From a virus, in IMG/VR virus record IMGVR_UViG_3300027833_003138, positions 76,315 to 140,314 of that record: DNA of 64,000 nt; one strand, 5' to 3'. Made by a program: the position numbers and the translations under genes. The notes beneath the pieces are model-generated. The model saw only the letters and a list, made by a program, of their open reading frames with translations, did not search any database and was not told the DNA's origin. Below are positions 6,759 through 38,970 of this stretch, piece by piece. Within the stretch, counting starts at the first letter, position 1. Each line of letters opens with the position of its first letter.

Positions 6759-7568
6759 ATGTCAGACACAGCAACCCCAACAATAAACGATACCCGCAAA
6801 AAACTGCGTGAAATTTACAGCTTCACTTTTGAAAAAGAAGAGAAGGTCAAGAAAACAGAGACGAGCAAAGTCAAGAACGAAGAAACCGGCGAAGAGGAAG
6901 AAGTTTCTGTAACCAAGGAAGTGGTTGAGCCAATTCCTTATCGACTCATAATGAAGCAGCCAACTCGCAGACAAATAGAAGATGCCGAATTGGAATTTAG
7001 TGTCGAAATGAGTAATTGTATAAAGCGAGGAATTTTAACAAAAGCCATGCTCGCAAAAAAATACAGCGATACAGGTGGACTGCTTGCGGAAGAGGACGCA
7101 AAAGCTCTGACAAAAATGTACGTAAGGTATGGAGAATTCTCCCAGGAAAGCGAAAAGATTCAGATAAAAAATGTTAAAACAGAAAAGGATACAGCGCGAT
7201 TAAAGGAAATCGCTGGAGAGATAGCTCTTTTAAGGAAAGATATTATTAATGTCGAGACTTCATATTCTAACCTTTTCAACCACACCGCTGACGTAAGAGC
7301 CGAGAATAAAGTTATTCAATGGTATATTTTAAATCTCACTTTTGTTCAGAAGTCTGACGAAGAGGAAATATCTCCTTTATTTGAGGGTCGCGATTTTGAG
7401 CAAAAGCTTCAAACTTATTACGAGCTTGAGGAGGAGGGGAACGATCTTTATGATATAGTCGGAGGAAAGGTTGCCGCATTTTTTAGCTTTTGGTATTACA
7501 GTTCTGGCGCAGTTTCGAAACTAGATTTCGAAAAGCTAGACAAAGATATCGAGGACGGTAGTATTTAA
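6759..7568 (+). CDS. Putative tail assembly chaperone 1
   Basis: 269 aa, acidic and helical; two genes upstream of the TMP. Confidence 0.45.
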   Translation: MSDTATPTINDTRKKLREIYSFTFEKEEKVKKTETSKVKNEETGEEEEVSVTKEVVEPIPYRLIMKQPTRRQIEDAELEFSVEMSNCIKRGILTKAMLAKKYSDTGGLLAEEDAKALTKMYVRYGEFSQESEKIQIKNVKTEKDTARLKEIAGEIALLRKDIINVETSYSNLFNHTADVRAENKVIQWYILNLTFVQKSDEEEISPLFEGRDFEQKLQTYYELEEEGNDLYDIVGGKVAAFFSFWYYSSGAVSKLDFEKLDKDIEDGSI

Positions 7569-7573
7569 TATAT

Positions 7574-8560
7574 GTGGAAGCGGTCAAGCGCAGAAAGATA
7601 TTTAGGGATGTAGTTAGAGGTTACTCTTCCACAATTCTTGACGAGGACTTTGTTTACATCAAGCACTTGACTCCGCACGACCAAGTAGAGCTTGAAGAGA
7701 TAGAGGAAAAATATTTTAACGCAGCCCTTCGTCGGGGCGTGCCCACAGAAGAAGAGATGCTTGCTTTTTTAAAAGAAGAGGGAGACTGGGGAGACAAGGA
7801 CGAAAAATTCATAGAGGATAAGGAGTATTTTCTTGAAACTTTAAAGACCGCCAAAACAAAAATGGTTATCAAGAACCAGATTGACAAGCAAGAAAAAACA
7901 ATAGAAGAAGAAACCCTCGCACTGAATCAAAAACTCGCTCAGAGGATGTCTCTTGTTGGAAACACTTGCGAGAAATATGCAAAAGATAGATTAAATGATT
8001 TTTATATGATTAAAAGTTTTTATAAAGATAAAGATTTATTGATTCCTTTATTTGGTGAAGATGAATTTGATGAATTAGAGAATCAAGATTTAAAGAAAAT
8101 AGTTTCTCGTTATAACGATGTCTTTAAGAGCTTTAATGAAGAAAATATACAATATACTATATTAGAAGATTTTTATAATCCATATTTAAGTTTTGCTGAA
8201 GATAGTATGCAATTTTATGGAAAGCCGTTTTGTGATTTAACATACAATCAAATAAGATTAATTGTATATACTAGAGTATTTAAAAATATATTTGATAATA
8301 ATGAAAATATACCAGAGAATATAAGAAAAGATCCCGCGAAACTGTTAGACTTTGGAGGCTCCTCAAAAGAAGAGCGAGACAAAGCCAAAGACAAACTAAA
8401 TCAAGGTAGCGCTGGAACTCTAGTTGGGGCTAAGGATGAGGATTATGAGTATCTTGGGGTGGACAAGCCTAAGGGAGGAGTAAGTCTTCACGAAGAAGCC
8501 AAAAAGAAGGGCGGAACTTTAAATATGGAAGATTTAATGAAATTGCATGGAGTAGGATAG
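7574..8560 (+). CDS. Putative tail assembly chaperone 2
   Basis: 328 aa, charged and helical; immediately upstream of the TMP. Confidence 0.45.
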   Translation: MEAVKRRKIFRDVVRGYSSTILDEDFVYIKHLTPHDQVELEEIEEKYFNAALRRGVPTEEEMLAFLKEEGDWGDKDEKFIEDKEYFLETLKTAKTKMVIKNQIDKQEKTIEEETLALNQKLAQRMSLVGNTCEKYAKDRLNDFYMIKSFYKDKDLLIPLFGEDEFDELENQDLKKIVSRYNDVFKSFNEENIQYTILEDFYNPYLSFAEDSMQFYGKPFCDLTYNQIRLIVYTRVFKNIFDNNENIPENIRKDPAKLLDFGGSSKEERDKAKDKLNQGSAGTLVGAKDEDYEYLGVDKPKGGVSLHEEAKKKGGTLNMEDLMKLHGVG

Positions 8561-8598: not shown

Positions 8599-11500
8599 AT
8601 GTCTATAAATCTCAATGTAACAGGTAATACGCAACCGCTTGAAGCGGCTGTTCAAGCGGCTGTAAACCGTATTCGCAAAACACCGATCAAAATAACGGTG
8701 GACGACAAGGGAGCTACTCAGCCGCTTGGAAATATGAAACGCGGAGCTGATGAGTTTAGCAAATCTATGGAAGCTGCTAACGCTCGTATCATTGCGTTTG
8801 GCGCAAGTATGGCGATAATAAATGGAGTAGCTGACGGCTTTAAGGCCTTAGTTAAAAATGTTGTTGAAGTCGAAAAAGCCCTTGCCGATATCAATGTAGT
8901 GATGAATTTATCTACAGCGAATTTAGAAAAATTCTCAAACGGCTTGTTTAAAACCGCCAAGGAAACTGGAGCAGCTTTTAACGTTGCCGCTGAAGCAGCT
9001 ACCGAATATGCTCGTCAAGGCTTGACAATGGAAGAGTCTTTAAAAAGAACTCGAGACGCTCTTATTTTGACCCGATTAACTGGAATGGATTCTGCAAATG
9101 CAGTAAAAGCTTTAACTGCAGCCATGAATACTTATGGAGATCAAATAAAAGACACTACTCAGTTGGTAAGTAAGTTTGCCGCTGTTGATGTTAAATTTGC
9201 GGTTAGCGCTGAGGACTTTGCGGATGCTATATCTCGTACTGGACAAGCAGCAAGAAGCGCTGGAGTAGATATTGATGAATTGGTTGGTCTTGTTACTGCG
9301 GCTCAGCAGAAAACCGCTCGAGGTGGTAAAGTAATCGGAAACTCATTTAAAACAATTTTCACAAGAATAGGAAGAACAGACACTTTAAATCAATTGGAAA
9401 ATCTGGGTATCGCTGTAAGAGATTTGGAAGGCAATACGATTGGCGCAAGAAGAATTTTAACCGATCTCGCTAACACTTTTGATCATCTTACGGAATCTCA
9501 AAAAGCACAAATAGCTCAGACGGTTGGTGGAGTTTTTCAAATCAATATATTAAAAGCTGTGTTGAGTGACGCTGCAAAGCAAAACGGTATACTTGCAAAC
9601 GCTACTCAAATCTCTGCAGGGGCCACCACAGAAGCTATAGACAAAAACGATCAATTAAGGCAGACCATGTCTGCAATGGCCACAGAAACCGGACTAGCTT
9701 TAAAGGAATTAAGTGCACAGATTGGAGAAATTATGCTTGCTCCGGGAATGGAAAAGGTTTTGAATGTTTTTAAGGGACTGGCTGAAGGAGCAAATGAAAT
9801 GCTTGGCGGTGGAGAATCCACTGGTAGCGATTTCGCTCAAGGTTTTTTAAAGGGCTTGGGTAATATCATAACTGGTCCAGGGTTGGTCGTTATTTCCGCA
9901 GTATTTATAAAGTTATTTGCTAAAGCTTTGGTTTATGCGAATCAAAGTCTGCAATCTTTAATTGGGGTAACAAGCGAAGCTCATAAACAAAAAGCAATAC
10001 AAACTTCTCTTGTTACTTTATTTGGGCAAAACGCAGCGATAAGCAAGGAAATGTTGCGAACCGATATTTCAAGAACGGAAAAGGAAAAAATAATCCTTGG
10101 ACTCTTGAAGGCTCAAGTTGTTGAAGCTAACATGTTGAACTCTGTATCAAAAAGCGTTGCTTCTAGTTTATACACGAAAGGTTACAATGCAAGCCTTGCC
10201 CCTCGAAAGGGAAGAGCGGGCGGACACATTCCAAATTTTGCAGATCCAGAACGCGAGCAAGCTGCGCGAGGTGGATATGCGGCTGGAACAATTCGTTCGA
10301 TGAATATGCCTGGCGAAGGCTCGGTGATATATAACAGCGCAGAAAAAGTAAAGAATTTTAAGGGGATGAGTCAACCTGCGATCATGCCTCCTCATTCAAG
10401 CAAAGCTGGAAAAAATTATCAACAAGCATTTGGTAGTATACATGGATTCGATCCATATGCAGCAGGAGGGTATATACCGAACTATGCGAGAGTAAAAGAT
10501 GTTCCAAATACTTATATGGATGTCCGAGCTTTTAAACAATTCGCAGGAATAAGAACTGGCGCTTCCTCGAGTAATACTAAGGCCACGGGAGCATATAACA
10601 CCCTTCGTCAATACGCAGAAACAAATAAACTTCAAAATTTATCTCCGGCAGCGCTTGTAAAGTCTTATAAAGGAAGCCAAACCCTAAAGAGCCCAAAAAA
10701 GTCTTTAGCCGCAATGCTTGTTCCCCCTGAAGGTTATAGTGGCAAGCCTTTTGCTAGCTACAGCGATCTTACGTGGCCAGTCTATTCCTTAAGGCCTGAC
10801 GCTCAAACCGACCCATCTTTAAGCAAAATGGTTGAGGGTGACTTCAAGTCGACGGGAAGTAAGTATGCTTCAAGAATCTCCAAAGTTCTAGAGAGGGGGC
10901 CAGTTAGTGAAAGTAAGATTTGGAAAACTATGCAGTCGGACACTGCTGGCGGAGCAAAAGGAGCATGGAAAGCTGCGGTAGGAGCTTTATTTGAAGCCGC
11001 AGTTAATTCCGCTTTAGATTATAGAAGTAAAGGGAGAGGTAAGGATGAGGGAGACTTCGATGTTCGAGGTGGGGATATAGGGATATTGTCAACAGCTTTT
11101 GATGGTTTTCCTGAGGGTATGACATTAGCCGATTACAAAAGCGATGACCGAAGTCCAGGAAATAAAGCTTCTTTTAGAAAAAAAGTACTTAAGCAACTTA
11201 AATTTAATAAATCCCAACAGCAAAACAAACTCAAACCAGGAAATTACGCCTCGGGGTTTATACCTAACTTCGCCGCAGCACGGCTAGCTCTCACGGGTGG
11301 ATTGGTTGGAAAAAACAAATTTGGCAATATAGATCGCAGGCAGATGACAAGACTGGTAAGATCTAATCCTTACTTCAACGGCTTGATGAATGAACATCTT
11401 ACATGGGACAGTTTTCCGAAAAAAGATAAGCGTAAATTAAGCGGGTGGCTACTCAAACAAGGGGTGTCTAACCGAGCCTTGCAAGCGTATGGTCTTGCAA

Positions 11501-14500
11501 GCATGCATTCAAAATCGATCGGAGAGGGAATCTCAAACTTAGCTATGGCGAAAGGCTTTATTCCCAACTTTGCTAACCCATTATCAGATGCAATAGGTCG
11601 AGAGAAAGCTGCAGGGGTTCCTGTTTCACAAATTCGTGTTGGCTCACACGGCGCGCTCATGGGTAAGAGTAACCCCCTCGGCCTCGGCGTAACCAATACG
11701 CAAGACGAACCAAATGGTCTGCGCGATGTAATTGGTGCAGCAGGCGGGTTTGTGCCGAATTATGCAGAGCCCGGCTTCCAAAGAACAGATGTAAACATTA
11801 AAGGCAGGAGAAAGCAAGATAAGCTTGTCGAAAAATTAAATCGAGAGCTAGAAAAGTATACAAACGCCTTTAAAAAAGGTCAACTCTCTCAGAAAAACTT
11901 AACCCAAGGAATAAAAAACCTTAATCAAAAATACGGCTTAAGCGAACAAACACAAAAGAGAGTCTTGAAAGAGACGAACAACTCTATAACTGCAACTCAA
12001 AAACTTAATGCAGCAAGACTAAGTACTACAAAAGCTTTAAGCGGCGGCGCCAAGGGAGCTATGGGGCTATGGGGAAAGGCGAACTCGAAAATAGAATCGT
12101 CCGCTTTAGGTAAAGGTTTAAGCTCCACAGGCGGCCAAATGGGCTTGATGATGGGAGCCCCTATGCTCGCTGGAATGCTTCAAGGCGACGGAATTGGAAC
12201 AGTAAGCGACACTAGTTATAAAGCGGGAGGGGTTGCTCAGGGGTTGGGCACTGGCGCCGCAATGGGTATGATGTTTGGACCGTTAGGTACTATTGTGGGG
12301 GGTACTATTGGTGCTTTTAAGGGTCTTGTGGACGCATCCAACGAACTCAAGGAAGCTCAAGAAAAAGCCATTAAAATTGCTAGAGAATCAAGCGTTCAGA
12401 CTGGCGCTGCTCTCGGCCAATCATTAGCTCCCGCTTTAGCTAAAACAGATTTTGGAAAAGGCGGTGCGGTCAATTTTTCTTTTGCAGGAAAGCAAAGAGA
12501 ATTAGATCTAGATAGCCCTAATCAGTTATCCACACGAAACGTCGAAGCGGGGCGATTTGGTATGAAAATGGGAGAAAATGTTAGGAGTCAAATGTTGGGT
12601 GGCTTAGATTTTGATTTAAAAAAATTGGTTGATGATTCGCGTGGGGGAAGATCTTTTGCTGAGCTTTCTAAAAATTTGTCTAAAGCTGGCTTAAGTGGAA
12701 CGGTGGTAGATAAAGAATTTTTAAAGGACGCTTTGTATGAAGAATATGATCCGGACTCAGAGTATGGAAAAACAAAAGCGAGAGGTGGGCCAGAAGCAAT
12801 TAAAAGAATTGAAGATCAGATCCTAGCTCAAATGGGGTCTGCTGCTAGGCCTGAAGCAATTAAGGCCGCATTAGATCAATTACCCGCTGATATGAAAATT
12901 CAAACTGCAGCGCTAGAAAAAGGCTCAACCGCAGGAGGGAGGTTCTTTGACAAAGGCGCTCTCGAATATTTTACTCCCGAAGAATTAAAAAGACAAATCG
13001 ACAAAGGTGACATTACGCAGGTCGCAAAAGCTTATGAAGATATTTTAAAACAAATCGACACCCAGAAAGAGGTAAACGCAGAAAATAATAAAGCCGTAAT
13101 CCTCCAACTCAATGCTCAACGAGCAATGGTAGCCGCTCAGCAAGAGACTCGGGATATACAATTCAATATAAAATCTTCATATGCAAAAATCGGCAGCTCA
13201 TTGTCTTTGCAAGCTAAAATCATGGGTAATTTTGCTACCGAGCAACAAAAAGCTCAATTAGATTATACAAAAGCAATCAACAAGGCTGCGCAATCATATG
13301 CTACCGGAGCTCAATCAGAGCAGGGTAAATACAGACAAGGTATGCTCGCTTTCTCTAAAAACGATAATATTGCTTCTGCTTTAAAAACAAGCTTAGCTCG
13401 GAAAAATTTAGTAGAACAGGCTGAACGTTCAGAAGATTTAGCTGGTCAATTTCCTAAGGACTCAGCAATCGAGGCAAAGGCTGAACAGATAGATTTAACA
13501 AATGAACTAATTAAACTATCAAATGAAGAATTATACGCAGAATTAAAAAAAGCAAATTTAAACACCGTGCAACTTCAAGCACTCGAAGACTACAAAAACA
13601 GCAAAGAAAAAAATATTGAATTATTAGTAAAAGAATTAGACCTATCCAACTCAATTGCAGAAAGTGAAAAGATAATAAATGATGCTATTGCAAGAAGAAA
13701 AGATTTAATTGCCGATGCGTCCACCGCAATTGGCATGTCTGATAAGCAACTCGCCCATAATCAAAAAATGCGAAGTTTTGCTGATAAGCTTGCCGCAGCG
13801 CAGAGATTAACCGCTTTTGGACCAGGATTTAAAACAGGAAAAGAGCAAGAAGATTTTAAAATGAAAGAAAAGCAATTTACTCTCGCAAGTTCCGCTATAA
13901 CTTTAAGAAAAAATGCTAAATCTGCGGTCAATAAAAAAATAAAAGAACGCACCGATCTCGAACTGCAACAACAGACAGCTCAAGAAAGAATCACGGCTCT
14001 GAAAGGGGGCGCCGAGTCAACTATCGAAAACGAGCAAAAAAAGTTAGAGGCGCTTCTTATTAAACAGCAACAGAATCTTGCTTTTATAGATCATGAAATA
14101 AAAAACATTAACGAATCAACAGAGGTTGAAATATCAAATGCCCAAAAACTCTTAGAAGAAGAGAAAAAAAGATTAAAACTTAAGAGGGAATACGAAACCG
14201 GACCTGGCGCAATGCGTAATGGAGCTCGCGATGCTCAAAAAAGAATTGTTGAGCAGGCTGAAACGATGGAGCTTAGGCTCGGAGGTGAATTAACAAATCA
14301 ATTTAGAGACGGCCTTGTTGACGGTATGCAAGCAGCAATAAATAAAGCCGATGACTTGAGCGATGTTATGAATAATATTGCAATGAATTTTCTTGGAGCA
14401 ATTCAACAAGCTTATCTTGGTAAAGCCGCCGATGCAATCGTTGGAGCTTTACCGTTTTCTAGCGGAGGAGGAGTAAGAAAATATTCTAAAGGAGGCGGAG

Positions 14501-15567
14501 TTCCTGCAATGGTTACTAATGGCGAATATGTAATGGGTCGCGACGCTGTGAAAAAATACGGTGGCGGATTTATGCATAGATTAAACGCAGGCGGAAAACT
14601 TCCAGGTTATTCAACTGGAGGTAAGCCAGACGAGCCTCAGCCAGGATCCGCTCTCGCTTCAAACTTTGGAGGAGGAGAAGGTTACAACACAGGAAGAAGA
14701 TATCAATCTCAAGCAATGTCTGGATTTTTCTACAGCGGACAAGCTGGGAACGTAGGACTTCAAGAAGATACTCAATATACAAAAGGTATCATTCAAGAAA
14801 GAATGAGAAAGGAAGCTGAGAAAAAAGCCAAAAAAAGAGCTTTAATGCAAATGATCGTAGGTACCGCTCTGAGTGTTGGAATTGGATCTCTCGCTAACGC
14901 CGGAATTGGGGCAATGGCAGAATCTGGAGCCTTAGGGGGAGGAGCTCAACAGCAAGCCTTATTGAAAGCTGCTCCAGAGGGAACTTTTGGCCCAATGGAC
15001 CCTAGTTCCGCTAGAAGATATGGAGGTTTCAGCGCACGCTTAAATCAAAACTTTGGGGGTAATGGATCATGGTCTTGGAACAAGAGTGAGCAGGATGGGT
15101 TCTCGAGCCAAGACCTAAGAAGCTTGCAGCCAGATTTTTTTCGTGGAGGAAGAGTGGGTAAATACGCCAACGGCGGCCACATAGCTGGCAAGTCTGGCAT
15201 CGATCAAATTCCCGCAATGCTCAGCGAAGGAGAGTATGTAATTCGCGCAAGTAGCGCTCGACAGCTCGGCAAACCAATGCTCGACCGAATAAATGCAGGA
15301 AAATTCAATGATGGTGGAGCAGTGACCCCCTTAACAGAAAACTCAGAAACTGGAACTTCTGGCGGAAATACAAATAATATTAATATAACGGTTAATATGG
15401 ACAAGGGAAGTGGGAAATCAGAAAAAAAGGATGATAAAGCAGGAGCCAATCCAAAAGACTCGTCAGAAGATCAAGAAAAAAGCACGCAGTTGGCGGAAAA
15501 AGTAAAACAACAAGTTATTTCTGTGATAATGGACGAGCAGCGACCAGGAGGCTTGTTGAGTGACTGA
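8599..15567 (+). CDS. Tail tape measure protein with internal cassettes
   Basis: 2322 aa. TP901-type N-terminal core (EYARQGL, SAEDFADAISRTG, GKVIGNSFKTIFTRI, LENLGI), long Ala/Gly-rich helices, C-terminal PAMLSEGEYV modules; canonical position. Confidence 0.95.
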   Translation: MSINLNVTGNTQPLEAAVQAAVNRIRKTPIKITVDDKGATQPLGNMKRGADEFSKSMEAANARIIAFGASMAIINGVADGFKALVKNVVEVEKALADINVVMNLSTANLEKFSNGLFKTAKETGAAFNVAAEAATEYARQGLTMEESLKRTRDALILTRLTGMDSANAVKALTAAMNTYGDQIKDTTQLVSKFAAVDVKFAVSAEDFADAISRTGQAARSAGVDIDELVGLVTAAQQKTARGGKVIGNSFKTIFTRIGRTDTLNQLENLGIAVRDLEGNTIGARRILTDLANTFDHLTESQKAQIAQTVGGVFQINILKAVLSDAAKQNGILANATQISAGATTEAIDKNDQLRQTMSAMATETGLALKELSAQIGEIMLAPGMEKVLNVFKGLAEGANEMLGGGESTGSDFAQGFLKGLGNIITGPGLVVISAVFIKLFAKALVYANQSLQSLIGVTSEAHKQKAIQTSLVTLFGQNAAISKEMLRTDISRTEKEKIILGLLKAQVVEANMLNSVSKSVASSLYTKGYNASLAPRKGRAGGHIPNFADPEREQAARGGYAAGTIRSMNMPGEGSVIYNSAEKVKNFKGMSQPAIMPPHSSKAGKNYQQAFGSIHGFDPYAAGGYIPNYARVKDVPNTYMDVRAFKQFAGIRTGASSSNTKATGAYNTLRQYAETNKLQNLSPAALVKSYKGSQTLKSPKKSLAAMLVPPEGYSGKPFASYSDLTWPVYSLRPDAQTDPSLSKMVEGDFKSTGSKYASRISKVLERGPVSESKIWKTMQSDTAGGAKGAWKAAVGALFEAAVNSALDYRSKGRGKDEGDFDVRGGDIGILSTAFDGFPEGMTLADYKSDDRSPGNKASFRKKVLKQLKFNKSQQQNKLKPGNYASGFIPNFAAARLALTGGLVGKNKFGNIDRRQMTRLVRSNPYFNGLMNEHLTWDSFPKKDKRKLSGWLLKQGVSNRALQAYGLASMHSKSIGEGISNLAMAKGFIPNFANPLSDAIGREKAAGVPVSQIRVGSHGALMGKSNPLGLGVTNTQDEPNGLRDVIGAAGGFVPNYAEPGFQRTDVNIKGRRKQDKLVEKLNRELEKYTNAFKKGQLSQKNLTQGIKNLNQKYGLSEQTQKRVLKETNNSITATQKLNAARLSTTKALSGGAKGAMGLWGKANSKIESSALGKGLSSTGGQMGLMMGAPMLAGMLQGDGIGTVSDTSYKAGGVAQGLGTGAAMGMMFGPLGTIVGGTIGAFKGLVDASNELKEAQEKAIKIARESSVQTGAALGQSLAPALAKTDFGKGGAVNFSFAGKQRELDLDSPNQLSTRNVEAGRFGMKMGENVRSQMLGGLDFDLKKLVDDSRGGRSFAELSKNLSKAGLSGTVVDKEFLKDALYEEYDPDSEYGKTKARGGPEAIKRIEDQILAQMGSAARPEAIKAALDQLPADMKIQTAALEKGSTAGGRFFDKGALEYFTPEELKRQIDKGDITQVAKAYEDILKQIDTQKEVNAENNKAVILQLNAQRAMVAAQQETRDIQFNIKSSYAKIGSSLSLQAKIMGNFATEQQKAQLDYTKAINKAAQSYATGAQSEQGKYRQGMLAFSKNDNIASALKTSLARKNLVEQAERSEDLAGQFPKDSAIEAKAEQIDLTNELIKLSNEELYAELKKANLNTVQLQALEDYKNSKEKNIELLVKELDLSNSIAESEKIINDAIARRKDLIADASTAIGMSDKQLAHNQKMRSFADKLAAAQRLTAFGPGFKTGKEQEDFKMKEKQFTLASSAITLRKNAKSAVNKKIKERTDLELQQQTAQERITALKGGAESTIENEQKKLEALLIKQQQNLAFIDHEIKNINESTEVEISNAQKLLEEEKKRLKLKREYETGPGAMRNGARDAQKRIVEQAETMELRLGGELTNQFRDGLVDGMQAAINKADDLSDVMNNIAMNFLGAIQQAYLGKAADAIVGALPFSSGGGVRKYSKGGGVPAMVTNGEYVMGRDAVKKYGGGFMHRLNAGGKLPGYSTGGKPDEPQPGSALASNFGGGEGYNTGRRYQSQAMSGFFYSGQAGNVGLQEDTQYTKGIIQERMRKEAEKKAKKRALMQMIVGTALSVGIGSLANAGIGAMAESGALGGGAQQQALLKAAPEGTFGPMDPSSARRYGGFSARLNQNFGGNGSWSWNKSEQDGFSSQDLRSLQPDFFRGGRVGKYANGGHIAGKSGIDQIPAMLSEGEYVIRASSARQLGKPMLDRINAGKFNDGGAVTPLTENSETGTSGGNTNNINITVNMDKGSGKSEKKDDKAGANPKDSSEDQEKSTQLAEKVKQQVISVIMDEQRPGGLLSD

Positions 15568-15569: not shown

Positions 15570-16451
15570 ATGACTTTCTCAAATTATGAACAAACTATAG
15601 TTGTAAACAATACCGCTCTTTCTGGAGTAGTAAATGTTAATGGAAGTTACGGAATAACAGAAAAGCCAATAAAGGTTGCTGGCGTAGGGTTTATAGACGC
15701 TTTTGTTAACGGTCCTCTTGAGGGTAATTTTTCGATTTCAAGAAAGATGGTAAGCAGGGATCCTATACTGGATCTGAATGTAGTCGGGCAGTACGCCTAC
15801 GACGAAAATGAAATAAGTGGATCAATTTTATACGACAATAACACAAAGGGTTTTGGGTTTACAAAAGGAAGAATTACTCGTTATTCAGTCAACTGTACAG
15901 TGGGCGATCTTCCTGATATTGAAACTGATATCACTGTATTTGGGGATCTAGGAAGCGGAATATTAATTCAAGAAGCTACCAAGCCTCATCCACCTATACA
16001 ATTTACTGACCAGGCCAGTATTTCAATAAACGTAAGCGATTTTTCAACAGACGCAGTAACAGATTTCAGCTTTAGTCGAGCTTTAAATTTGCAGCCAATG
16101 TATGCAATTCCAAAAGGCACCGAAGCCGAATGGCATGCCGACAGCAAAACCACTTACGAAAATCATGATCCAATACAAATCGATACAATTTATCCAATCG
16201 AAACGGATATTAATTTTACAATGATTGTAAATGAATACGAAGTAAGACAAACCAAAGATCGTCTCAGAGCGGCTCCAGAAAGCGATGTCGTTATTCAAAT
16301 AAAAGATTCTAAAACAAAAGAAGTTATTAATGCTTTTACTGGCGTTAAGGCTAGATTAATAAGCGAATCTATAACATCCTCGGTCGAAGGAGAAATGAGT
16401 ATATCTTTAACTTATAAATCATATGAGACCCTTCATAATCCAGTAATATGA
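15570..16451 (+). CDS. Tail-tube-fold tail tip protein
   Basis: FTKGRITRYSVNCTVGDLP resembles the tube motif GYVSNYSIEASVGSMP; directly follows the TMP. Confidence 0.45.
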   Translation: MTFSNYEQTIVVNNTALSGVVNVNGSYGITEKPIKVAGVGFIDAFVNGPLEGNFSISRKMVSRDPILDLNVVGQYAYDENEISGSILYDNNTKGFGFTKGRITRYSVNCTVGDLPDIETDITVFGDLGSGILIQEATKPHPPIQFTDQASISINVSDFSTDAVTDFSFSRALNLQPMYAIPKGTEAEWHADSKTTYENHDPIQIDTIYPIETDINFTMIVNEYEVRQTKDRLRAAPESDVVIQIKDSKTKEVINAFTGVKARLISESITSSVEGEMSISLTYKSYETLHNPVI

Positions 16452-19658: not shown

Positions 19659-20738
19659 ATGGCAAAATCAGAATCAAATTTTAATAAGCAATTAATTTCA
19701 ATCACTCCCGATTCGGTCGTGGATATGTACGAAATCGATTTTAGCAACCTTCAGTCAAACTTTGAAATGCTTAAGGATTTACATGGAGTTAATCTGGGCG
19801 CAGATGCTATATATAGGTTTTGCCCCATGAAGAATTCAAGCAATCCTGTTTATTGGCAGGGGAATGCCTATCAACCTTTGCCTGTAAAAATGGAGGGTTT
19901 TGAGAGTCAGTCAGACGGAAGACTTCCAAGGCCAACAATTTCAATAGCTAACCCCGAGGGGCTTTTGTCTAAAATTATTAGATCTAATAAAGATTTCGCC
20001 AATTGCAAGGTTACCCGGAAGAGAACTTTTGTTAAATTTCTTGATGATGAAAACTTTCAAAATAGGAATTTAAACGAATCAGGAAAGAATCCTTTTGGCG
20101 AATCCGACCCAAACTCACACTTTCCTGATGATATATTTTTTATAAACAAGAAAACAATAGAAAATAAAAACGTAATTACTTTTGAGCTTGTGTCTTCATT
20201 AGAGCTTCAGGGATCAAGTGTTCCAGCAAGAATAGTCATGCCTTCTCATTGCTCTTGGATGTATAGATGTTCTATTGGTTGTGGGTACAAGGGTCTAGCC
20301 ATAGAGGATAACGAGGGTAGGGATCTAACTCAGAAATATGCCCATAATAATTACGGCAATGGATTGGAAGATATTCCCAAATGGAGCAAGCATGGGTTTT
20401 TAGATAACGAGCTAGTTCCTGGCGGATACGACTCTGGCTCATTGGTTAAAATAATTCCACAAAGCTCGGCTGACCCTTATAAATCTACGCCTGTTGTTTT
20501 TTTATGTATAAAAACCCACGCTATTGCATCCGATCATATACCGTTTTTTGATAATAATCACTGGGTAAAAGACGAATGTCAGAAAACAATAGACTCTTGC
20601 AAGAAAAGATTCTCTGAGTCTCATTTGGATTCTTTGGGCGGGTCTAGGAATATCACCGATTATAACAAAATAAACATAACTCATAAAGGATTAAGGTTTG
20701 GAGGTTTCCCGGGCACAGAAAGATATCCAGCTGCATAA
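19659..20738 (+). CDS. Minor tail protein L (lambda gpL-like, Fe-S cysteines)
   Basis: VYWQGNAYQPLPVKMEGFE, GRLPRPTISIAN, KVTRKRTFVKFLD, CSWMYR...C, C.K....CKKRF, FGGFPG. Confidence 0.9.
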   Translation: MAKSESNFNKQLISITPDSVVDMYEIDFSNLQSNFEMLKDLHGVNLGADAIYRFCPMKNSSNPVYWQGNAYQPLPVKMEGFESQSDGRLPRPTISIANPEGLLSKIIRSNKDFANCKVTRKRTFVKFLDDENFQNRNLNESGKNPFGESDPNSHFPDDIFFINKKTIENKNVITFELVSSLELQGSSVPARIVMPSHCSWMYRCSIGCGYKGLAIEDNEGRDLTQKYAHNNYGNGLEDIPKWSKHGFLDNELVPGGYDSGSLVKIIPQSSADPYKSTPVVFLCIKTHAIASDHIPFFDNNHWVKDECQKTIDSCKKRFSESHLDSLGGSRNITDYNKINITHKGLRFGGFPGTERYPAA

Positions 20739-21054
20739 AACTATACTCGAACAGGTTAAGACTTATTGCTTGCGGTCTTTAACTGAGGAGAGTTGCGGAT
20801 TGATCGTTGAGTCTACTTCAGGCCTAAAGGTTTTGCCTTGCAAAAACGAAAGCCCTTTTCCTGAGCATCATTTTATGATTAATTTAAATATTTTTATAGA
20901 AAATAAAGTTTTATATGTTTATCATTCTCATGTGAATTGCTCAGTAAATCCATCTATTACAGATAAGTTATATTCTGATGAATTATGTATCCCATTTTTG
21001 ATCTATAGCATTAGGGATGATGAATTTGGTATATATGGCAATATAAGTGTATAG
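20698..21054 (+). CDS. Tail assembly protein K-like, JAB/MPN domain only
   Basis: EESCGLI ... YHSH ... PSITD JAMM motif; no NlpC/P60 domain. Confidence 0.8.
   Translation: MEVSRAQKDIQLHKTILEQVKTYCLRSLTEESCGLIVESTSGLKVLPCKNESPFPEHHFMINLNIFIENKVLYVYHSHVNCSVNPSITDKLYSDELCIPFLIYSIRDDEFGIYGNISV
21047..21051 (+). promoter_or_regulatory. GTGTA motif upstream of the I-J gene
   Basis: GTGTA 24 nt before ATG 21076. Confidence 0.5.
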
Positions 21055-25734: not shown

Positions 25735-28700
25735 ATGCTATCTACCGCAATAGGAATTCAGTTTGATGTAAACGATCTCAAGGCTAATTACGAAGTGATT
25801 GGCTCGTCCGACAATTACTCATTTCAATACAACCTAGGAAAAGGGAGTAAGCTTGTAGATTTTGAAGGAGAAACCGCGCAGAAGACCATATCTCTGAATG
25901 GTAATTATGGCATTTTTTCAATTAGAATATTTGCGGTAAGCGACGTAGGTATTCGCTCTGAATTTCTTGAGGAAAAGATATCTATTAGCCCCCCATTGTT
26001 TGATGATACTTTTACATTTTCCGAAATCAAAGTTTCAAATCTTCCACAAGATTCAAACATAGGAAGCACTATCGAAATAGAACCTTCTGAGAGCGGTAAT
26101 TTATTAGCAGTTAATTCTGAGTATATTAATAGAAATGTCGAAATAGAATGGAGACTATCTCCCCCTCCAGGCCACGCGAAGGAAGGAAGGTCGTTGGGCA
26201 ACGAACTGCTCAGCGATAAATTTTTAAGAGACTTTTCTCTGCAAATAAGAAACACAGAAAATGGCAATATAATCTCTGACGCAGAATTAAATAACTCTGT
26301 AGCTCTTCAGTCTACCCTTAACACCCCCTCGGTGTCCGATATGATGGATGCTTATACAGGATTTTCTTTTACAATATCAAATGACACAATAACAGAGTTA
26401 AGTCTAGATAGAACTCTTGCTTTAGAGGTTGTCTCTAATGATGCGTTTGGTCGCCAAGCAACTGGAGTGTTAACTGGAATAAATTATTTACCTACGGTTG
26501 ACTCGTTAAGTTATAATTTGAGAGGGGCAAAAATGTCTTTTAGTTGGTCTTCTCAAGATACCGATTTTTATGAAGCTCAAATCTCGTCTCTCGGTATTCC
26601 TGGCGACGAAGAAATATACGATCCTTATAACCTTCAAAGAAGCATAGATTATTATGAAGCTCTGAGCTCGGCAACTATTTGGGAAAAGCACAATAATTAT
26701 AGGGTCGGAGATAAGGTCATTCACGATTTAATTGTGTTTGAATGTATACAAGATTACAGATATTCCAACTTTCCAGATGTAAATACAAGTGACACTAGCT
26801 ACTGGACAAATGTGGGGCCAGTAATAGATCATTCTTTTACTCAAGAAAATATAACAGAAAATAATAAAGAATTTAATCAAATATGGGGATATAATTATTA
26901 CTATTCTTTTATGCCTTCTGATGGTTACGGCACAGGGCAAAGATTGAATTTAACTGAAACAGGTTTACATCCAGGAGGTGAGCTGAATCCTTTTAAGTCT
27001 GATGTAAAAATAGATAATTTAAATTTTATAGAAAGAGATGATGATTTAATTTTTCGTTGGAATGTAACTGATCAGGATAATAATTTAGTAGATTTAAATC
27101 AATATAAATTTTTAGTTGGGTCTACTGATAAGCCTTCTATTCTTGGAATAAGTGGATCTTTATATGATAGTGATACAAATTTATTTCTAACTGGAATAAC
27201 TGAAGGTTTAAATTCTAGAACTTCTGTTACTGAAAATGGAGTTGAAAGTATATCCGAAAATCTTCCTGGCACAAAAGTTTTTGAGACTTATGAATATACA
27301 AGAGAAATAAATAATTCAATTTATAAAGTTGGAGGTTTTCCTGAGCATCAAGATTTTTCTTATTCTGGTCAATATAATAATGGTGACCATGTAGTATTTG
27401 AAAGCTCGTTATACAGAGCTACAAGCGAAACGGCTTTAAGCTCCGATAAGTTGATAACTCCTCTTGTCCCGCCTTGGAGTCCTGGCATAAATTATTTATT
27501 CAGAACCGGCCTTCATCACTCTGATAGTTTCTCTTATGCTAGCGGAGTTTACTCTGTGTTTGGAACAGTTAATAACGAAATTATTGGGCCTGACGCAAGC
27601 GATGTTGTCGGACTATATAATGAGCTTGAAAACTATTCTATTGGCGATTTGATTATATCTCCAAACGGTAATACGGAAATTTATAAGGGAGGAAGGTTTT
27701 TCGATGTTGGCGATAGCGTTTTATACGAGGGATCTTTGTATACATGTATTACTCAACAGGAAAGCTCTGATTATATATCTCCAGATACGGGAATGAATCA
27801 TTGGAAAACCGCTTCAGCTTTTTCAAGCGTTTCTGCAGATATTTATAAAGCTATAGCTGCAGTGCCACAATCTTCAGAGATACTTCCCTCGACGGGGTAT
27901 ACCCATTGGCAAGTTCAAAACCCTGAGACATCTAATAAATATTATTTACTCGCTGAAAATTATGATTTTCCGATTCGTAATTGGTCTCAGCTTGATGATT
28001 TTTCTAGCGCAGATTTTGTTGTATACGCTAATGATATATGGAGCGGGGTCGATTCAAGCGGCCCAAACACCCCTGCAGGATCAAAGATTCCAAACTTAAG
28101 TAATAATAGTTATTGGACTAATACCGATAACCAATCGAGCGACTTCTCTACGAGTCACCAAGTTGGAGATAAGGTATTCTCTAACGGAGCTATATATAAA
28201 TGTTTAGCTAACAATCCGACGGGAGCGCCTCTTGAAGCTGTAGTCGACAACTCTTCACAAATAAACTCTTCATATCAATCGTCTCAGTGGGCTCCTTATT
28301 GGGAATTGAATACAGGGTTTGATGGTGTAATTTTTAAACACGAAGGGATTCCAGAAAAAGGCAAAAGAAGCGTTGGTCTTGAATTGGCGATTTTAAGCCC
28401 TTTGGGTGAAGTTTTAAATTCAAGAAGGATAGTTGGAAATAATCCTGAGCCCAGTATATTGCCCCAAGGATTTCAGGTTGACTCTTTAAGTAATGTCACT
28501 CAAGTGCATTTCAATTTTAATTACGCATTTGGATCTAGAGAGCAAACAACCAAGGTTCAATTATATAGGTCCGAGTTTCCAAGCTTTTCCATACTGGACG
28601 GAAATGGGTTTCCTGGTTCTGGGGCAGGGTCTTTTGTTTCAGAAATATTGGGGCCTGGGGACTCCACTTTTGGGAAAAATATAACATCAATTACAGATTC

Positions 28701-31700
28701 GCCTCCGATACCAAATATTCCGGGTTTGGGACATCAAATAACCGGTTATTATTACAAACTTCTTCCTTTTGACTCTTTTGGTAGTGGCGACTTATTTAAC
28801 GTAACAGATAATCAAGGAAGTCTTGAGCGGGTTTTGGTTTATCCTCATGGGTACAATAACCAGAACGAAAATGGATACATGGGGCCAGTTTTCTCAACAA
28901 CAGAAGATGCGATCCCTGGCCCCGTTAAAGATTTTAAGGGAGATACGGCTTTTAGGAATTATTTCTTGAATTGGAAGATGCCTGATGCAGAATTTAATTC
29001 TGCAAATAACATAATAAACACTTCTCCAAACGATATAAGTCATTACGAAGTTTGGGAGTCGGAAGATAACTACCTTTATTTCGGAACTGAGGATACGACT
29101 CTCGACGAAACAAGAAATTTATCCGGATACAGAAGAATAACTGGAGACCTAACCAGTGTCGGTCCAATACCCTCAGAGATTAATGACCCAGCTTCGGGAA
29201 TAACCAACGCAACAAACGTTTTAAATATTTCAGCAATATCTCCAAGCGTGCAAGTAACGCATCAAGGAGAACCTAATGATAAAAGATATTTTTGGGTTAG
29301 ATCTGTGGATCACGCGGGTAATAAAGGTCCGTTTACTGGCGACGCTAACCTAGGATCCTCTAATGATATCATAGGTTTGGACTTGACCTTGGGGCAGGCT
29401 AGAACCACAGATGTTTCGGATTTTGAGCAAAACATAACCCAAACATTTCCAAACACTCTAGCTTTAGTTCCAAACAACCCTTTTGCAGCTAATCAGCCAT
29501 ACGGGGGGGAAGTTTCGTGGGACCGACATTTTGTATATAATGACGGAGTTGGTTATGTTATTGGGGGTAGCGACACTCACGATCTGAAAACTAGTCAGGG
29601 ATTAAGTACAGCTAAATATATTTATTGGAAGAGCGGTGATATGTCCGCCTTAACGGCAGAACAGTACTCGATGTTGGGGCTTGCTCCTCCTGGAGATAAG
29701 GTTGTCCGATTGATTGATGCGGAGATAGATGGGGCACAAAATATAACCAATAATCAATTTTCTATCAAGGAAACAGATTATGATTTAGGAACAAACAACC
29801 AATACAATAATCATTATATACGCTTTAAGAATGGGCTGCTAGACACTCAAGAAAGAAAAATATCTAATTATCAAAGATTTTCTAATTACGTAACAATAAC
29901 CCTAGATAGATCATTTTCTCAACCCCCTTTAAGTGGAGATGATATAGAAATTCTGGAAGAGGTTGCAGTAAGTTCTGCCATCACGAATCCTCTTCGCAGT
30001 ATTCAATTCTCTGGGCAGTATAGGGTTTCTGATTACCACCCAGCTGGAGAAGGAGAAACAAGCGACCCGTCTGCTTACGCAGGGCCAGACATGGATTCGG
30101 AAAAACCAAGTCTGCTTGATGATAATGATTTTATTATTGCAAGAAACGCGGGGGGCATACCAACCCCAATGTGGCACGCTTTTGCGAATGCAACAATAGG
30201 CACCGCTCATATAGAAGAAGCCGCAATAACTAATGCGAAAATACACAATTTAACAGCTGATAAAATAAGATCTTCTGTAATACAGTCTCAAGACATTCAG
30301 GTTGGTGGAGACGCCAATAGTGGGCAAATCCGAAGTGCTGGTTTTGGGCTGTTGAATGATGTAGGCGGTTACGGATATGATTGTGTGGACGCTCCAGGAG
30401 CAGGCTTTGCGATCAGCGGAAACGGTTCTTTTGTTTTTAAAACAGAAAGGGGTAAGTTGTTTTTTGAGGAGGACGAGTTAACTATTCACGGAAATATAAG
30501 ACAAAAGGACGGCTCCGAGTTGACCGTAATGTCAATGAATGCAGAGCCCTCGGTTTTTAATTACGAAGAGACTGCAGATGGCGTTTTTAAACCCGAGCTA
30601 AATCAAACTTCAAACATTACTGTAAGATTTAATAATAGCGATATTACCGAAAACGATGTTAGATTCAAAATGGAACTTCCTGATGGAACTAATGTTTTTA
30701 ATTATACTGACTATTCAAATGGTTATAATACTCATGGCTTTGAGTATCAGCCAAACAATACTTATTTTAATTCAGACACTCAAGTTGCAACTGCTACGTT
30801 TAAAGTTGGAAATAAAGAAACCAACACCGCAGGTTTTGATAAAATCATTCACGGAAATGATGATATTATTGACTTTCAATCTGTTATTATATACGCTTCT
30901 GGTATAGGCACAAGCACCGAACATTCAACAACAGTAAGTGTGCTTGCCAATGGAGCTCCTGGACCAACAGGAAAAACACCTGTTTATAGAGGCGTGTGGG
31001 ATTCCACAAAGAATTACATCGGCATGGAGGATGGAATTCAAGGGTCCGACACGGCAGAGGAATTGAGAGGAGATCTAGTCTATTACGATAATCCCTCATC
31101 TCCAGCAGGAGGAAATGGGCATCATTATATAGCTATGAAAAATAGCGGTCCGTCAAGTGCGGTTATTACCCCGGGACAACACGCCCAAACAGACGATTAT
31201 TGGAAGAAATTCGGAGCCGAATTTCAAAGCGTAGCAACTAACTTGCTGCTTGCGGACAATGCGGTCATAACTCATAGCTTGACTATGGGGAGTAGCGACG
31301 ATGATAATCCAGCAACCCATGGAGCGGGTGGAAAAATCGTATCTTCTAGTTTCTTGGGTGGATTTAGTGATGATTTAACAGCCAATCGAAGCATAGAAGA
31401 TTATTCGAATGCGGGTTTTAGGCTGCAAAAATCAGCCACTTCTCCTTATAATGTAGCTTTAGATGTTGGTGGGCCAAACTCATATTTTAGATATAGCAGT
31501 ATAGCTGACAGGGTAGAAATAAGAGGAAGTTTTATAAATAATAATATTATTGATGGTTCTGTAACTAGCAACTTAGCGGGTGCAGTAGGAGATCCAAAGT
31601 CTGTTTTTATAGGAGGTGGTTATAATAACCAAATTAATAATTCCAGTTTCACTAATCTTAATTGCCTGGCCTCTTCGATAGTTGGCGGTGGAGATAACCT

Positions 31701-32514
31701 TATACAAGGAAGGTTTTCTATAATAGGTAATGGGTATGGAAATGAATTAAAAGATAATTTTTCTGTTATATGCGGTGGGTTTGAAAATAAAATGCCACTC
31801 GGCAGCTCTGTTAATGAGGGCGCTAATATAATAGGCGCGGGTTATCAAAACCAAATAAACGGAGGCTCTATTCAGGGAATTCTTGGCGGTTCAAAAAACG
31901 TTATAGATAATTCCTCTGGCACTAAACATTATAATAGTGCAGGTGGATGGGCTAATGTTTTAAAAAGAGGCCTGGATCAAGCAATATATGGTGACGCAGG
32001 GGTAGGGTGGTTAACTAATACCTGGATTAATACACATCTAGATTATAATGTATTAGGTTATTGGCCGGAAGGTTTATTTTTTAGTTCAGATTTATCCAAT
32101 GCATCGGGCGGGTCGACCCCTAAGCTCGGTTGGACCTTCTCGTCCGCTTTTGGGTGGGCTTATTTTTCTTATGTAGGCACACCTAACGGTATGTATGATA
32201 CTGTTAATACAAGCGGCGGCGTTTGGATGTATGCGGAAATTTTCTCAAATACTCCGGAGTGGTGTTTTCTTTTTCATCCAGGTGCGATGGTTAATGCATC
32301 GTTTTATAAAGCAACTTCTGGGGTTGGTTTATGGTTTGACCCTGCGTATATAGCAAACTCCGCTTCGCTGGGAACTTTCGAACACGGTTCTGGGAAGCGA
32401 ATGCATAGATCTTCGAATAGTACATGGTATGATATAATTATTAATTCTGCCAACGAAGTCTGGTATAGCGCTGCAGCTAGTGGCGGCAGTGCTAAAACTT
32501 GGTATAAAAAATAA
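25735..32514 (+). CDS. Central tail fibre / J C-terminal part with FnIII, CBM5/12-like repeats and beta-helix repeats
   Basis: FnIII-like YFWVRSVDHAGNKGPF; Y..GD.V...G..Y.C repeats; IGTAHIEEAAITNAKIHNLTADKI as in gpJ C-termini; S.I.GG..N.I repeats. Confidence 0.75.
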   Translation: MLSTAIGIQFDVNDLKANYEVIGSSDNYSFQYNLGKGSKLVDFEGETAQKTISLNGNYGIFSIRIFAVSDVGIRSEFLEEKISISPPLFDDTFTFSEIKVSNLPQDSNIGSTIEIEPSESGNLLAVNSEYINRNVEIEWRLSPPPGHAKEGRSLGNELLSDKFLRDFSLQIRNTENGNIISDAELNNSVALQSTLNTPSVSDMMDAYTGFSFTISNDTITELSLDRTLALEVVSNDAFGRQATGVLTGINYLPTVDSLSYNLRGAKMSFSWSSQDTDFYEAQISSLGIPGDEEIYDPYNLQRSIDYYEALSSATIWEKHNNYRVGDKVIHDLIVFECIQDYRYSNFPDVNTSDTSYWTNVGPVIDHSFTQENITENNKEFNQIWGYNYYYSFMPSDGYGTGQRLNLTETGLHPGGELNPFKSDVKIDNLNFIERDDDLIFRWNVTDQDNNLVDLNQYKFLVGSTDKPSILGISGSLYDSDTNLFLTGITEGLNSRTSVTENGVESISENLPGTKVFETYEYTREINNSIYKVGGFPEHQDFSYSGQYNNGDHVVFESSLYRATSETALSSDKLITPLVPPWSPGINYLFRTGLHHSDSFSYASGVYSVFGTVNNEIIGPDASDVVGLYNELENYSIGDLIISPNGNTEIYKGGRFFDVGDSVLYEGSLYTCITQQESSDYISPDTGMNHWKTASAFSSVSADIYKAIAAVPQSSEILPSTGYTHWQVQNPETSNKYYLLAENYDFPIRNWSQLDDFSSADFVVYANDIWSGVDSSGPNTPAGSKIPNLSNNSYWTNTDNQSSDFSTSHQVGDKVFSNGAIYKCLANNPTGAPLEAVVDNSSQINSSYQSSQWAPYWELNTGFDGVIFKHEGIPEKGKRSVGLELAILSPLGEVLNSRRIVGNNPEPSILPQGFQVDSLSNVTQVHFNFNYAFGSREQTTKVQLYRSEFPSFSILDGNGFPGSGAGSFVSEILGPGDSTFGKNITSITDSPPIPNIPGLGHQITGYYYKLLPFDSFGSGDLFNVTDNQGSLERVLVYPHGYNNQNENGYMGPVFSTTEDAIPGPVKDFKGDTAFRNYFLNWKMPDAEFNSANNIINTSPNDISHYEVWESEDNYLYFGTEDTTLDETRNLSGYRRITGDLTSVGPIPSEINDPASGITNATNVLNISAISPSVQVTHQGEPNDKRYFWVRSVDHAGNKGPFTGDANLGSSNDIIGLDLTLGQARTTDVSDFEQNITQTFPNTLALVPNNPFAANQPYGGEVSWDRHFVYNDGVGYVIGGSDTHDLKTSQGLSTAKYIYWKSGDMSALTAEQYSMLGLAPPGDKVVRLIDAEIDGAQNITNNQFSIKETDYDLGTNNQYNNHYIRFKNGLLDTQERKISNYQRFSNYVTITLDRSFSQPPLSGDDIEILEEVAVSSAITNPLRSIQFSGQYRVSDYHPAGEGETSDPSAYAGPDMDSEKPSLLDDNDFIIARNAGGIPTPMWHAFANATIGTAHIEEAAITNAKIHNLTADKIRSSVIQSQDIQVGGDANSGQIRSAGFGLLNDVGGYGYDCVDAPGAGFAISGNGSFVFKTERGKLFFEEDELTIHGNIRQKDGSELTVMSMNAEPSVFNYEETADGVFKPELNQTSNITVRFNNSDITENDVRFKMELPDGTNVFNYTDYSNGYNTHGFEYQPNNTYFNSDTQVATATFKVGNKETNTAGFDKIIHGNDDIIDFQSVIIYASGIGTSTEHSTTVSVLANGAPGPTGKTPVYRGVWDSTKNYIGMEDGIQGSDTAEELRGDLVYYDNPSSPAGGNGHHYIAMKNSGPSSAVITPGQHAQTDDYWKKFGAEFQSVATNLLLADNAVITHSLTMGSSDDDNPATHGAGGKIVSSSFLGGFSDDLTANRSIEDYSNAGFRLQKSATSPYNVALDVGGPNSYFRYSSIADRVEIRGSFINNNIIDGSVTSNLAGAVGDPKSVFIGGGYNNQINNSSFTNLNCLASSIVGGGDNLIQGRFSIIGNGYGNELKDNFSVICGGFENKMPLGSSVNEGANIIGAGYQNQINGGSIQGILGGSKNVIDNSSGTKHYNSAGGWANVLKRGLDQAIYGDAGVGWLTNTWINTHLDYNVLGYWPEGLFFSSDLSNASGGSTPKLGWTFSSAFGWAYFSYVGTPNGMYDTVNTSGGVWMYAEIFSNTPEWCFLFHPGAMVNASFYKATSGVGLWFDPAYIANSASLGTFEHGSGKRMHRSSNSTWYDIIINSANEVWYSAAASGGSAKTWYKK

Positions 32515-33207: not shown

Positions 33208-34000
33208 TTACCTTCATTAATACTCTTGACTCTGTCGGGGGAATATCTGAGTAATCGTTCCAGTCTTTAACTGAATCGTTTTTATATTTTCCGGTCTTCC
33301 ACCAATCTCTAAGTATAACTTTAAACTCTTCAAAACTGGAACAATTCAATTTATCTCCAGCTAGAGACTCTATCATTGATGAAGGAGTAAGTGATCCTCC
33401 AGAGGAATTACTAGATACTGTCTGGCTGGATTTATCTATTTCATCGTCTCCCACGATATGAACATTTAAAAAATTTCTTACGCATCTAACAAAAGCTCTA
33501 TTGCATGCTATAGTCTCTAAAAACTTCGTAGCAAAGCTGCTAGTGTTGTCTAGAGTGGCGTTAGCCATGTCTTGAAAGATTACTGGTTCACCAAAGGTTT
33601 CATAGTTTGGTAAAAATTTCATTCTGCATACCACTGCAACATGGTTGAGTTCACACCTAACCGTTTCATATGCAACATCCGAAAAGCCTCTTAATTTTGC
33701 AAGCTCCTTGATCCCGCTAAGTTTTATTAATAATTGATAATCTTTTAGTCCAATTATAGATCTAGGCAAATCTTTTTTTCTTAAACTAAACCAGGATTTG
33801 TTTGGAAAAAGGTTTTCGTCTTTAATCATGGCTCTCCAATTTACAGAGCCATCCTCTGAAAATTCGTAATCTACGTTATCAAGCAATCCAAATTCATTTC
33901 TTAGAAATTTACCCGGACCGTCTTTGTAGTTTTTAATATAAACTAAATTGCTTTGTTCTTTGTTTTCTGAATTATTTTCTGATGTCTTTGTTTTTACCAT
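33197..34000 (-). CDS. Putative Rad52/Sak-like single-strand annealing protein
   Basis: GIKELA...AVV.C...MANAT..N...FLETIACNRAFVRCVRNFLNV resembles the AETRA.GRALR core. Confidence 0.4.
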   Translation of the reverse strand: MVKTKTSENNSENKEQSNLVYIKNYKDGPGKFLRNEFGLLDNVDYEFSEDGSVNWRAMIKDENLFPNKSWFSLRKKDLPRSIIGLKDYQLLIKLSGIKELAKLRGFSDVAYETVRCELNHVAVVCRMKFLPNYETFGEPVIFQDMANATLDNTSSFATKFLETIACNRAFVRCVRNFLNVHIVGDDEIDKSSQTVSSNSSGGSLTPSSMIESLAGDKLNCSSFEEFKVILRDWWKTGKYKNDSVKDWNDYSDIPPTESRVLMKVINS

Positions 34001-37618: not shown

Positions 37619-37666
37619 AATATATTATTGATTTTATAAGAGATACTATCCTGGAATCTTTTTTTC

Positions 37667-38551: not shown

Positions 38552-38970
38552 TTTAAATAATCAGAACACAGCCCAAAGCAGGGCGGCCCTCCATAGTTTC
38601 TTGCGTCATCCACAACAAGAACACTTTTATTGCTAACTCTCTTTCCTGGATAAGTCCATACAAAGTTCTTAGAAGTTAATGTGAAATCGTCTGATTCATG
38701 CCAAAAATAATTTAACACCTTAAATTCGCTTAATAAATCCATGGCTTCTAGGTTTTTACAATGAATCCATAAGTGTCTAAAATTCTGAATTAGGAATTTC
38801 ATTGGACACGGATTTTCAGGATTGTCGTGACCAAGCCATAGCTGTTCTTTCGCCCAGACATCGATTTCAACGTCAAACCCCGAGTCTAGAGCTTCTTGTA
38901 TGTAGCTTATTGAGTTTTCTCTTTTCTCGTTCGGACCTTCGGTATTGCCTCTATGGGAGATCAGTATCAT
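38548..38970 (-). CDS. PLC-like / glycerophosphodiester phosphodiesterase-fold protein
   Basis: ISHRGN, ENS, DVEIDVW, LGHD, WIHCKN; ATG 38970 chosen as start. Confidence 0.75.
   Translation of the reverse strand: MILISHRGNTEGPNEKRENSISYIQEALDSGFDVEIDVWAKEQLWLGHDNPENPCPMKFLIQNFRHLWIHCKNLEAMDLLSEFKVLNYFWHESDDFTLTSKNFVWTYPGKRVSNKSVLVVDDARNYGGPPCFGLCSDYLK

Follow-up and report, generated by a model that had tools for sequence, protein, structure and literature searches.

A motif-fenced array of exchangeable cassettes in the tail tape measure protein of a marine siphovirus, a candidate carrier of injected effectors

Can the tape measure protein (TMP) of a phage tail also carry effectors into the host? 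This question is raised by a stretch of 64,000 nucleotides (the window; positions 76,315 to 140,314 of IMG/VR record IMGVR_UViG_3300027833_003138), which is part of a 140-kb virus record of approx. 79% completeness from marine metagenomes. The open reading frame (ORF) at 8599..15567 on the plus strand encodes 2,322 amino acids and is a siphovirus TMP by family match as well as by gene position. It is of the TP901 type (PF10145, E 1e-28; TIGR01760, E 9e-32; PHROG TMP families) and belongs to a lambda-like long non-contractile tail module, in which it sits between genes in tail-chaperone position and gpM-, gpL- and gpJ-like genes. An initial annotation of the window had described five short motifs in this protein and proposed that they delimit injected cargo. 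The motifs GGHIPNFA (10219..10242), GGYIPNYA (10465..10488), SGFIPNFA (11251..11274), KGFIPNFA (11551..11574) and GGFVPNYA (11743..11766), all on the plus strand like the other TMP features below, were found exactly as described, and so were the segments of 74, 254, 92 and 56 amino acids between them, here termed modules 1 to 4. On balance, the TMP appears to double as an injected effector carrier or polyprotein, a reading that is favoured by a narrow measure.

The exchange of cassettes was followed among relatives. A search with the TMP region upstream of and including module 1 yielded 69 viral loci, of which 50 contain four motifs, 15 five, three seven and one three. Number and identity of the inner segments thus vary across homologous TMPs while motifs and outer modules stay conserved, as the initial annotation had anticipated. 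Among 43 distinct close loci, modules 1 and 4 each had a median identity of 85% and the upstream scaffold one of 76%, compared to 24% for module 2, which fell into 23 clusters at 50% identity. When the N-terminal scaffold was at least 90% identical, 57 of 68 locus pairs had modules 2 with less than 35% identity, and conversely, 16 locus pairs had modules 2 with at least 70% identity on scaffolds below 85% (the pairs are not independent in either comparison).

The borders of these exchanges were located at base level. Compared with the window, DNA identity of the relatives changes within the 27 motif bases. Motif 2 is a breakpoint in L001, L004, L010 and L021, with approx. 90% DNA identity to its left and approx. 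30% to its right. At motif 3 lies the breakpoint at which module 3 is gained or lost: locus L015 has module 2 in common with the window as far as motif 3 and then passes straight into module 4, while in L021 module 3 shows 97-100% DNA identity to the window, limited to the span from motif 3 to motif 4. In contigs from two other studies, 11275-11576 is absent, exactly 300 bases or 100 codons, corresponding to module 3. Motif 5 is a breakpoint into the variable distal TMP. Loose contig ends concentrate at motifs 2-5, and in single seawater samples read depth on the flanks was several times that on module 2, which indicates that many alleles co-occur. From these alignments, it is almost certain that entire cassettes are exchanged among the relatives; the recombination events resolve within the motif codons and the conserved flanks, and the reading frame is thereby kept.

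The motif itself has the consensus A-x-G-[YFH]-[IV]-P-N-[FY]-A over 562 junctions. The pattern occurs at five places in the TMP and nowhere else in the 140-kb genome in six frames, and was not found in any of 2,000 protein shuffles. Every synonymous codon is in use in the motif codons; therefore, the motif appears to be selected as a peptide, and recombination homology is only secondary. The motif had also been read as a recombination junction, which is borne out by the breakpoints in its codons, but a DNA recombination site was rejected on account of the synonymous codons. In the structure model, the motifs are low-confidence linkers.

Two further observations concern the TMP beyond the array. 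The part past motif 5 (11767-14450, plus strand) is 96% identical to L005, but identity drops to 40% in L001-L004 despite N-termini that are 99% identical; parts of it look globular and may be additional unfenced cargo. In L015 (6651-12600), the TMP is distributed over two ORFs, one of 1,504 amino acids and one downstream, which is either an assembly error or a real split.

Module 2 (10489..11250; 254 amino acids, net charge +17) is the hypervariable cassette. A profile of 49 of its alleles retrieved 244 proteins at the 50%-cluster level, nearly all of them TMPs, and in 107 of the 121 long ones the domain was flanked by a motif on either side. Across 162 sequences with approx. 20% identity, G165, E169, D191, D/E215, K217 and K232 are conserved to 99-100% (E169, D191, D/E215 and K232 to 100%, K217 to 99%). 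The putative active site in the window lies within 10993-11184 (E799, D821, D845 and K847 plus K862 in TMP numbering). The PD-(D/E)XK layout comprises E in a helix, D, and D/E-x-K in a strand (PMC3424549), and the conserved E, D and D/E-x-K of module 2 appear in this canonical order. In the model of module 2 (pLDDT 79), E169 is part of a helix and D-x-K lies in a strand. In the sequences compared, slot 2 always holds alleles of one family, which is probably a nuclease-type enzyme, predicted to be metal-dependent and of the PD-(D/E)XK type with alleles that differ in their target.

Structure searches with the module 2 model gave no match at E 0.001 in Foldseek against PDB and BFVD; the best VIA hit had a Z of 4.7 on helical pieces and Atlas TM values were below 0.3, in searches that were dominated by the helical parts and barely probed the catalytic half. 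Searches with a model of the whole array were likewise without a clear match. All catalytic residues of module 2 recur in a sister family of cassettes, P0146 with its 16 relatives (HHalign 88-89%, E 2e-6). In that family, two further strands follow the catalytic residues, whereas similar strands precede them in module 2. A permuted profile scored a mean of 26.8 bits on the P0146 relatives, compared to 19.4 bits in native order and 22.7 ± 1.4 bits for 30 column-shuffled controls. This suggests that module 2 is a circularly permuted PD-(D/E)XK domain, and such a permutation could explain the failed structure searches.

The fixed modules frame this cassette. Module 1 (10243..10464; 74 amino acids, net charge +2) is modelled as helix, beta-hairpin and helix, has near-invariant E, G, N and E residues and is 75-100% identical among the close loci. 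Module 4 (11575..11742; 56 amino acids, net charge 0) has near-invariant R-E, G, N-P and V-x-N-x-x-D-E-P and is 74-100% identical. The resemblance of the outer modules that had been pointed out is reflected in a common pattern, E-x-x-A-x-x-G ... G-x-x-[VI]-x-N-x(2,3)-E, but homology was not significant in a profile-profile comparison without the motifs (probability 3%), and paralogy is plausible. A kinship of modules 1 and 4 to the C-terminal TMP modules was considered and dropped, as no alignment was obtained. In L060 (3928-5682) and L061 (8304-10298), module 1 is followed by approx. 500-600 amino acids of low-complexity G-S-K-N-Q repeats and then by a second copy of module 1.

Module 3 (11275..11550; 92 amino acids, net charge +10) is optional, is modelled as a small helical domain of no known family and occurs inside TMPs only. 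It travels independently of the module 2 allele, and the idea that it is an immunity domain was therefore rejected. By sequence comparison, the slot after module 2 is the only one that accepts unrelated modules. The two inner segments are indeed basic, as noted at the outset, but they are not simply unrelated cargo, since slot 2 always holds the one nuclease-like family. Predicted structures agree with the expectation that the segments are globular and not TMP helix. In distant relatives, further slots carry ART-, protein-kinase-, GNAT- and P-loop-like motifs, which were recognised by eye and not named by Pfam. A nine-motif array (L073, 928-7965), on a contig binned to a Marinimicrobia metagenome-assembled genome, contains an ART-like cassette (R...S-T-S...E) and has its nuclease cassette in second-last position. 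Cargo segments were net basic in 201 of 202 cases, with a median of +6 per 100 amino acids compared to +0.8 for the scaffold. In L067 (9915-11744), three tandem paralogous cassettes of approx. 200 amino acids with a GNAT-like G-x-G acetyl-CoA motif each stand between junction peptides.

How might such an array work? A hydrophobic, likely transmembrane segment lies 5' of it (9883..9939; amino acids 429-447, Kyte-Doolittle 2.1) and a Gly-rich hydrophobic pair, possibly a membrane hairpin, 3' of it (12139..12318; amino acids 1181-1240). Between these two membrane segments, the order would be fixed module 1, nuclease cassette, optional cassette and fixed module 4, each fenced by motifs. Inside the tail, the cassettes would be stored unfolded in the lumen. 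They would exit together with the TMP before the DNA does, pass to the cytoplasmic side between the membrane segments and regain their fold there, either cut free or tethered. TMPs exit the tail first and form a trans-envelope channel, and during injection a probe that faces the cytoplasm labels the TMP of lambda (bioRxiv 2025.11.03.685801). By analogy with these systems, packing, exit ahead of the DNA, cytoplasmic entry and refolding are, taken together, fairly probable. A cut of the motif before Ala would free each cassette. During the first minutes, the nuclease would then act upon DNA or RNA of the host, nucleic acid of a defence system or a co-infecting phage, and the turnover of alleles would reflect this arms race.

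Known TMP processing gives a lead for cleavage. The TMP of the window ends with two copies of a common C-terminal module, which opens with [FY]-x-x-G-G (14455..14628, profile match to lambda gpH 733-785, E 3e-8; 15136..15321, gpH 730-785, E 8e-9). In 59 of 155 proteins, this module closes with G-x-[ILV]-P-x-[FY]-[ASN]-x-G-G, which is akin to the junction motif; the first copy in the window ends in G-x-[IL]-P-x-[FY]-x-x-G-G. Approx. 14 kDa are removed from the C-terminus of lambda gpH at an unmapped site (PMC10038345; PMC12617516), and a cut at the first closing motif would take off 120 residues. For T5 pb2, a cut was reported after R1127 and release of an enzymatic C-terminal piece was proposed (Linares et al. 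2023, PMC10038345). The sequence at this site is F-V-P-R/A-E-G-G, and it ranked first of approx. 1,210 windows with a matrix from the 562 junctions. The likeness is a lead for cleavage before Ala, not proof, and from the peptides compared we place a TMP-maturation-type cut site just short of an even chance. One candidate for the processing protease is a JAB/JAMM metalloprotease encoded at the gpK position (20698..21054, plus strand; PF14464, E 1.6e-4) with an intact E...H-S-H-x7-S-x2-D site. Its usual substrate may be the tip plug, and the neighbour known to be processed in lambda-like tails is the gpI-type plug. The gene lies between gpL- and gpJ-like genes; compared with lambda gpK, its product is without the NlpC/P60 half. 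A separate gene resembling gpI is not apparent.

Several results weigh against an injected, cleaved effector. The T5 window scores -10 bits in an unbiased matrix and reaches +17 only with a gap that was added after the site had been seen. The cut at R1127 is contested, since this is a site for trypsin and an earlier report had named V1148 (PMC11937520). Five cuts in the middle of the TMP could break its ruler and channel roles unless they are made after assembly. No Pfam, PADLOC or PDB sequence match was obtained for module 2, and the nuclease call derives purely from residues and secondary structure. The distal TMP is almost as mosaic as module 2 (median identity 32%), so that variability alone is no mark of an effector. 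No immunity gene adjoins the TMP, as conserved genes flank it approx. 43 bases upstream and 0-3 bases downstream, and neither a PF01555 nor a PF00145 methylase that would explain self-protection was found in the 79% complete genome. In view of the missing immunity gene and common methylase, self-protection may come from timing, target choice or an undetected modification. Seemingly larger gaps downstream of the TMP in relatives are insertions within the next gene (15570-16451), whose homologues in L005, L025, L032 and L050 have variable insertions of approx. 80-490 codons. Long runs of glycosyltransferase-like genes lie beside the tail module (33972-47014 and 56193-61418; matches to PF00534 and PF05637), and decoration of virion or DNA, relevant to self-protection from the nuclease, is possible.

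The cassettes might also act without being cut out. The motif would then be a structural joint, i.e. a chaperone, lumen-packing or folding-boundary signal, and the nuclease would remain tethered to the channel that the TMP forms at the inner membrane, e.g. to guard or process the end of the DNA as it enters or to cut host nucleoid nearby. This agrees with the hydrophobic segments flanking the array, with the cytoplasm-facing probe that labels the lambda TMP (bioRxiv 2025.11.03.685801), with the low-confidence linkers and the disputed T5 site, and with N4 vRNAP and some polyvalent proteins, which are transferred uncleaved (PMC5512222). However, an invariant P-N-[FY] and a strong preference for Ala at one position over 562 junctions would be needless for a mere hinge, and a related motif marks the region of the lambda and T5 cuts. 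A tethered effector is considered unlikely.

Excision during tail assembly with action in the producing cell is quite improbable. The cassette would here be a late competition or homing-type nuclease that damages co-infecting relatives with another allele and spreads itself in frame inside an essential gene. The very high diversity of alleles, which are often swapped between near-identical phages, and the co-occurrence of many alleles in single seawater samples would fit, and an insertion in frame between two conserved modules is reminiscent of inteins. A globular domain of 254 amino acids does not fit the tail lumen in its folded state. Yet the splice residues of inteins are missing at the module borders (neither a C/S start nor an H-N end), the same slots accept non-nuclease cargo, and no stand-alone copies were found, unlike for homing nucleases; short matches to module 2 were fragments. 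Least of all would we expect the variable segments to be non-enzymatic surfaces, acting as host-interaction sites or decoys that evade TMP-sensing defences or match an inner-membrane partner. SNIPE-type defences do bind siphovirus TMPs with escape mapping to the TMP, and the distal TMP is mosaic as well, but the catalytic order of five charged or Gly residues that are invariant over 162 sequences of approx. 20% identity, together with several other cassettes with enzyme motifs recognised by eye, makes this very improbable.

The preferred reading of an injected effector carrier can be set beside known systems. In polymorphic toxin systems (MuF, Rhs, CDI), a conserved carrier bears a variable enzyme and recombination occurs at a conserved boundary peptide. 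The parallel drawn by the initial annotation holds in so far as a variable domain is exchanged at a conserved boundary, but the cargo is internal here, not C-terminal, and no immunity gene follows. Polyvalent proteins are large virion proteins, each with several enzyme domains of unrelated kinds (ART, kinase, GNAT, NTase); they are predicted to be delivered at invasion and are sometimes proteolysed (Iyer et al. 2017, PMC5512222). The cassettes of this clade may have a similar repertoire, judging from motifs recognised by eye in the relatives and from one enzyme-like domain in this TMP. Polyvalent proteins are, however, packaged in capsids or delivered by type IV secretion systems, often with an MPTase, and TMPs or a fixed junction peptide are absent from that work (PMC5512222). 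In the TMP of the window, PF10145 (conserved N-terminal domain, 8953..9531, amino acids 119-311) is the sole Pfam match, and no MPTase (HEXXH) or LPD marker domains were found.

T5 pb2 and lambda gpH are cleaved near an A-x-G-G peptide, and the C-terminal modules of this TMP are homologous to lambda gpH 730-785, but in T5 and lambda there is one C-terminal cut, no internal array and no exchangeable cargo. An enzyme motif embedded in the TMP of mycobacteriophage TM4 aids infection (Piuri and Hatfull 2006, as cited in PMC13277306). TM4-type TMPs carry cell-wall hydrolases that act outside the cytoplasm, are fixed and are not motif-fenced, whereas the cargo described here looks directed at nucleic acid. 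Sle1/Tme of actinobacterial contractile injection systems is a TMP-like carrier in the tube lumen whose functional domain is exchangeable, and one of these domains is a toxin (PMC13277306). It belongs to bacterial contractile machines and has a single C-terminal domain with a DUF4157 partner and an antitoxin; it has no motif-delimited internal array, and no cleavage is reported. Extreme divergence, insertions and circular permutations are typical of the PD-(D/E)XK superfamily (Steczkiewicz et al. 2012, PMC3424549). Module 2 differs by a helix inserted between D and D/E-x-K, two strands seemingly before the catalytic half and the lack of a match to a named family.

The system would work like polyvalent effectors and TMP-related effectors of contractile injection systems, yet it is neither. 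Literature searches found no description of a motif-fenced TMP array, the array was not found in any cultured phage, and the cassettes were not named by Pfam, PHROG, PADLOC or PDB sequence searches; a stand-alone homologue of the nuclease was not found either. The locus contributes the minimal form of the array, breakpoints at base and population level, a slot reserved for one hypervariable nuclease-like family and the hint at circular permutation. A wider picture is tentative and lies on the less probable side: a widespread clade of large aquatic siphoviruses might use the tail lumen as a magazine, with a TMP polyprotein cut at a repeated maturation peptide into enzymes that are injected before the genome, including a new circularly permuted PD-(D/E)XK family with dozens of exchangeable alleles.

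To our knowledge, long non-contractile tails have been thought to inject little beyond DNA and channel. If the preferred reading is true, a TMP with exchangeable cytoplasm-directed enzymes would be a new route of counter-defence or host takeover before phage gene expression and a hotspot of marine phage-host coevolution. Engineered protein delivery into bacteria by a non-contractile tail could be guided by the nine-residue joint, which would offer a natural site to plug in cargo. With five occurrences of one peptide in the same protein, the array also makes it possible to test how TMPs are cleaved, and at which sites.

The host was not deduced from matches in metagenome-assembled genomes (Flavobacteriaceae, Marinimicrobia), as these are probably binned viral contigs. 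Ahead of the TMP, 6759-8560 (plus strand) contains two ORFs of 269 and 328 amino acids in tail-chaperone position, which are unusually long and without family matches. Downstream of the gpJ-like gene, a gene encoding 2,259 amino acids (25735-32514, plus strand) has CBM5/12 carbohydrate-binding matches and is a probable tail fibre or adhesin.

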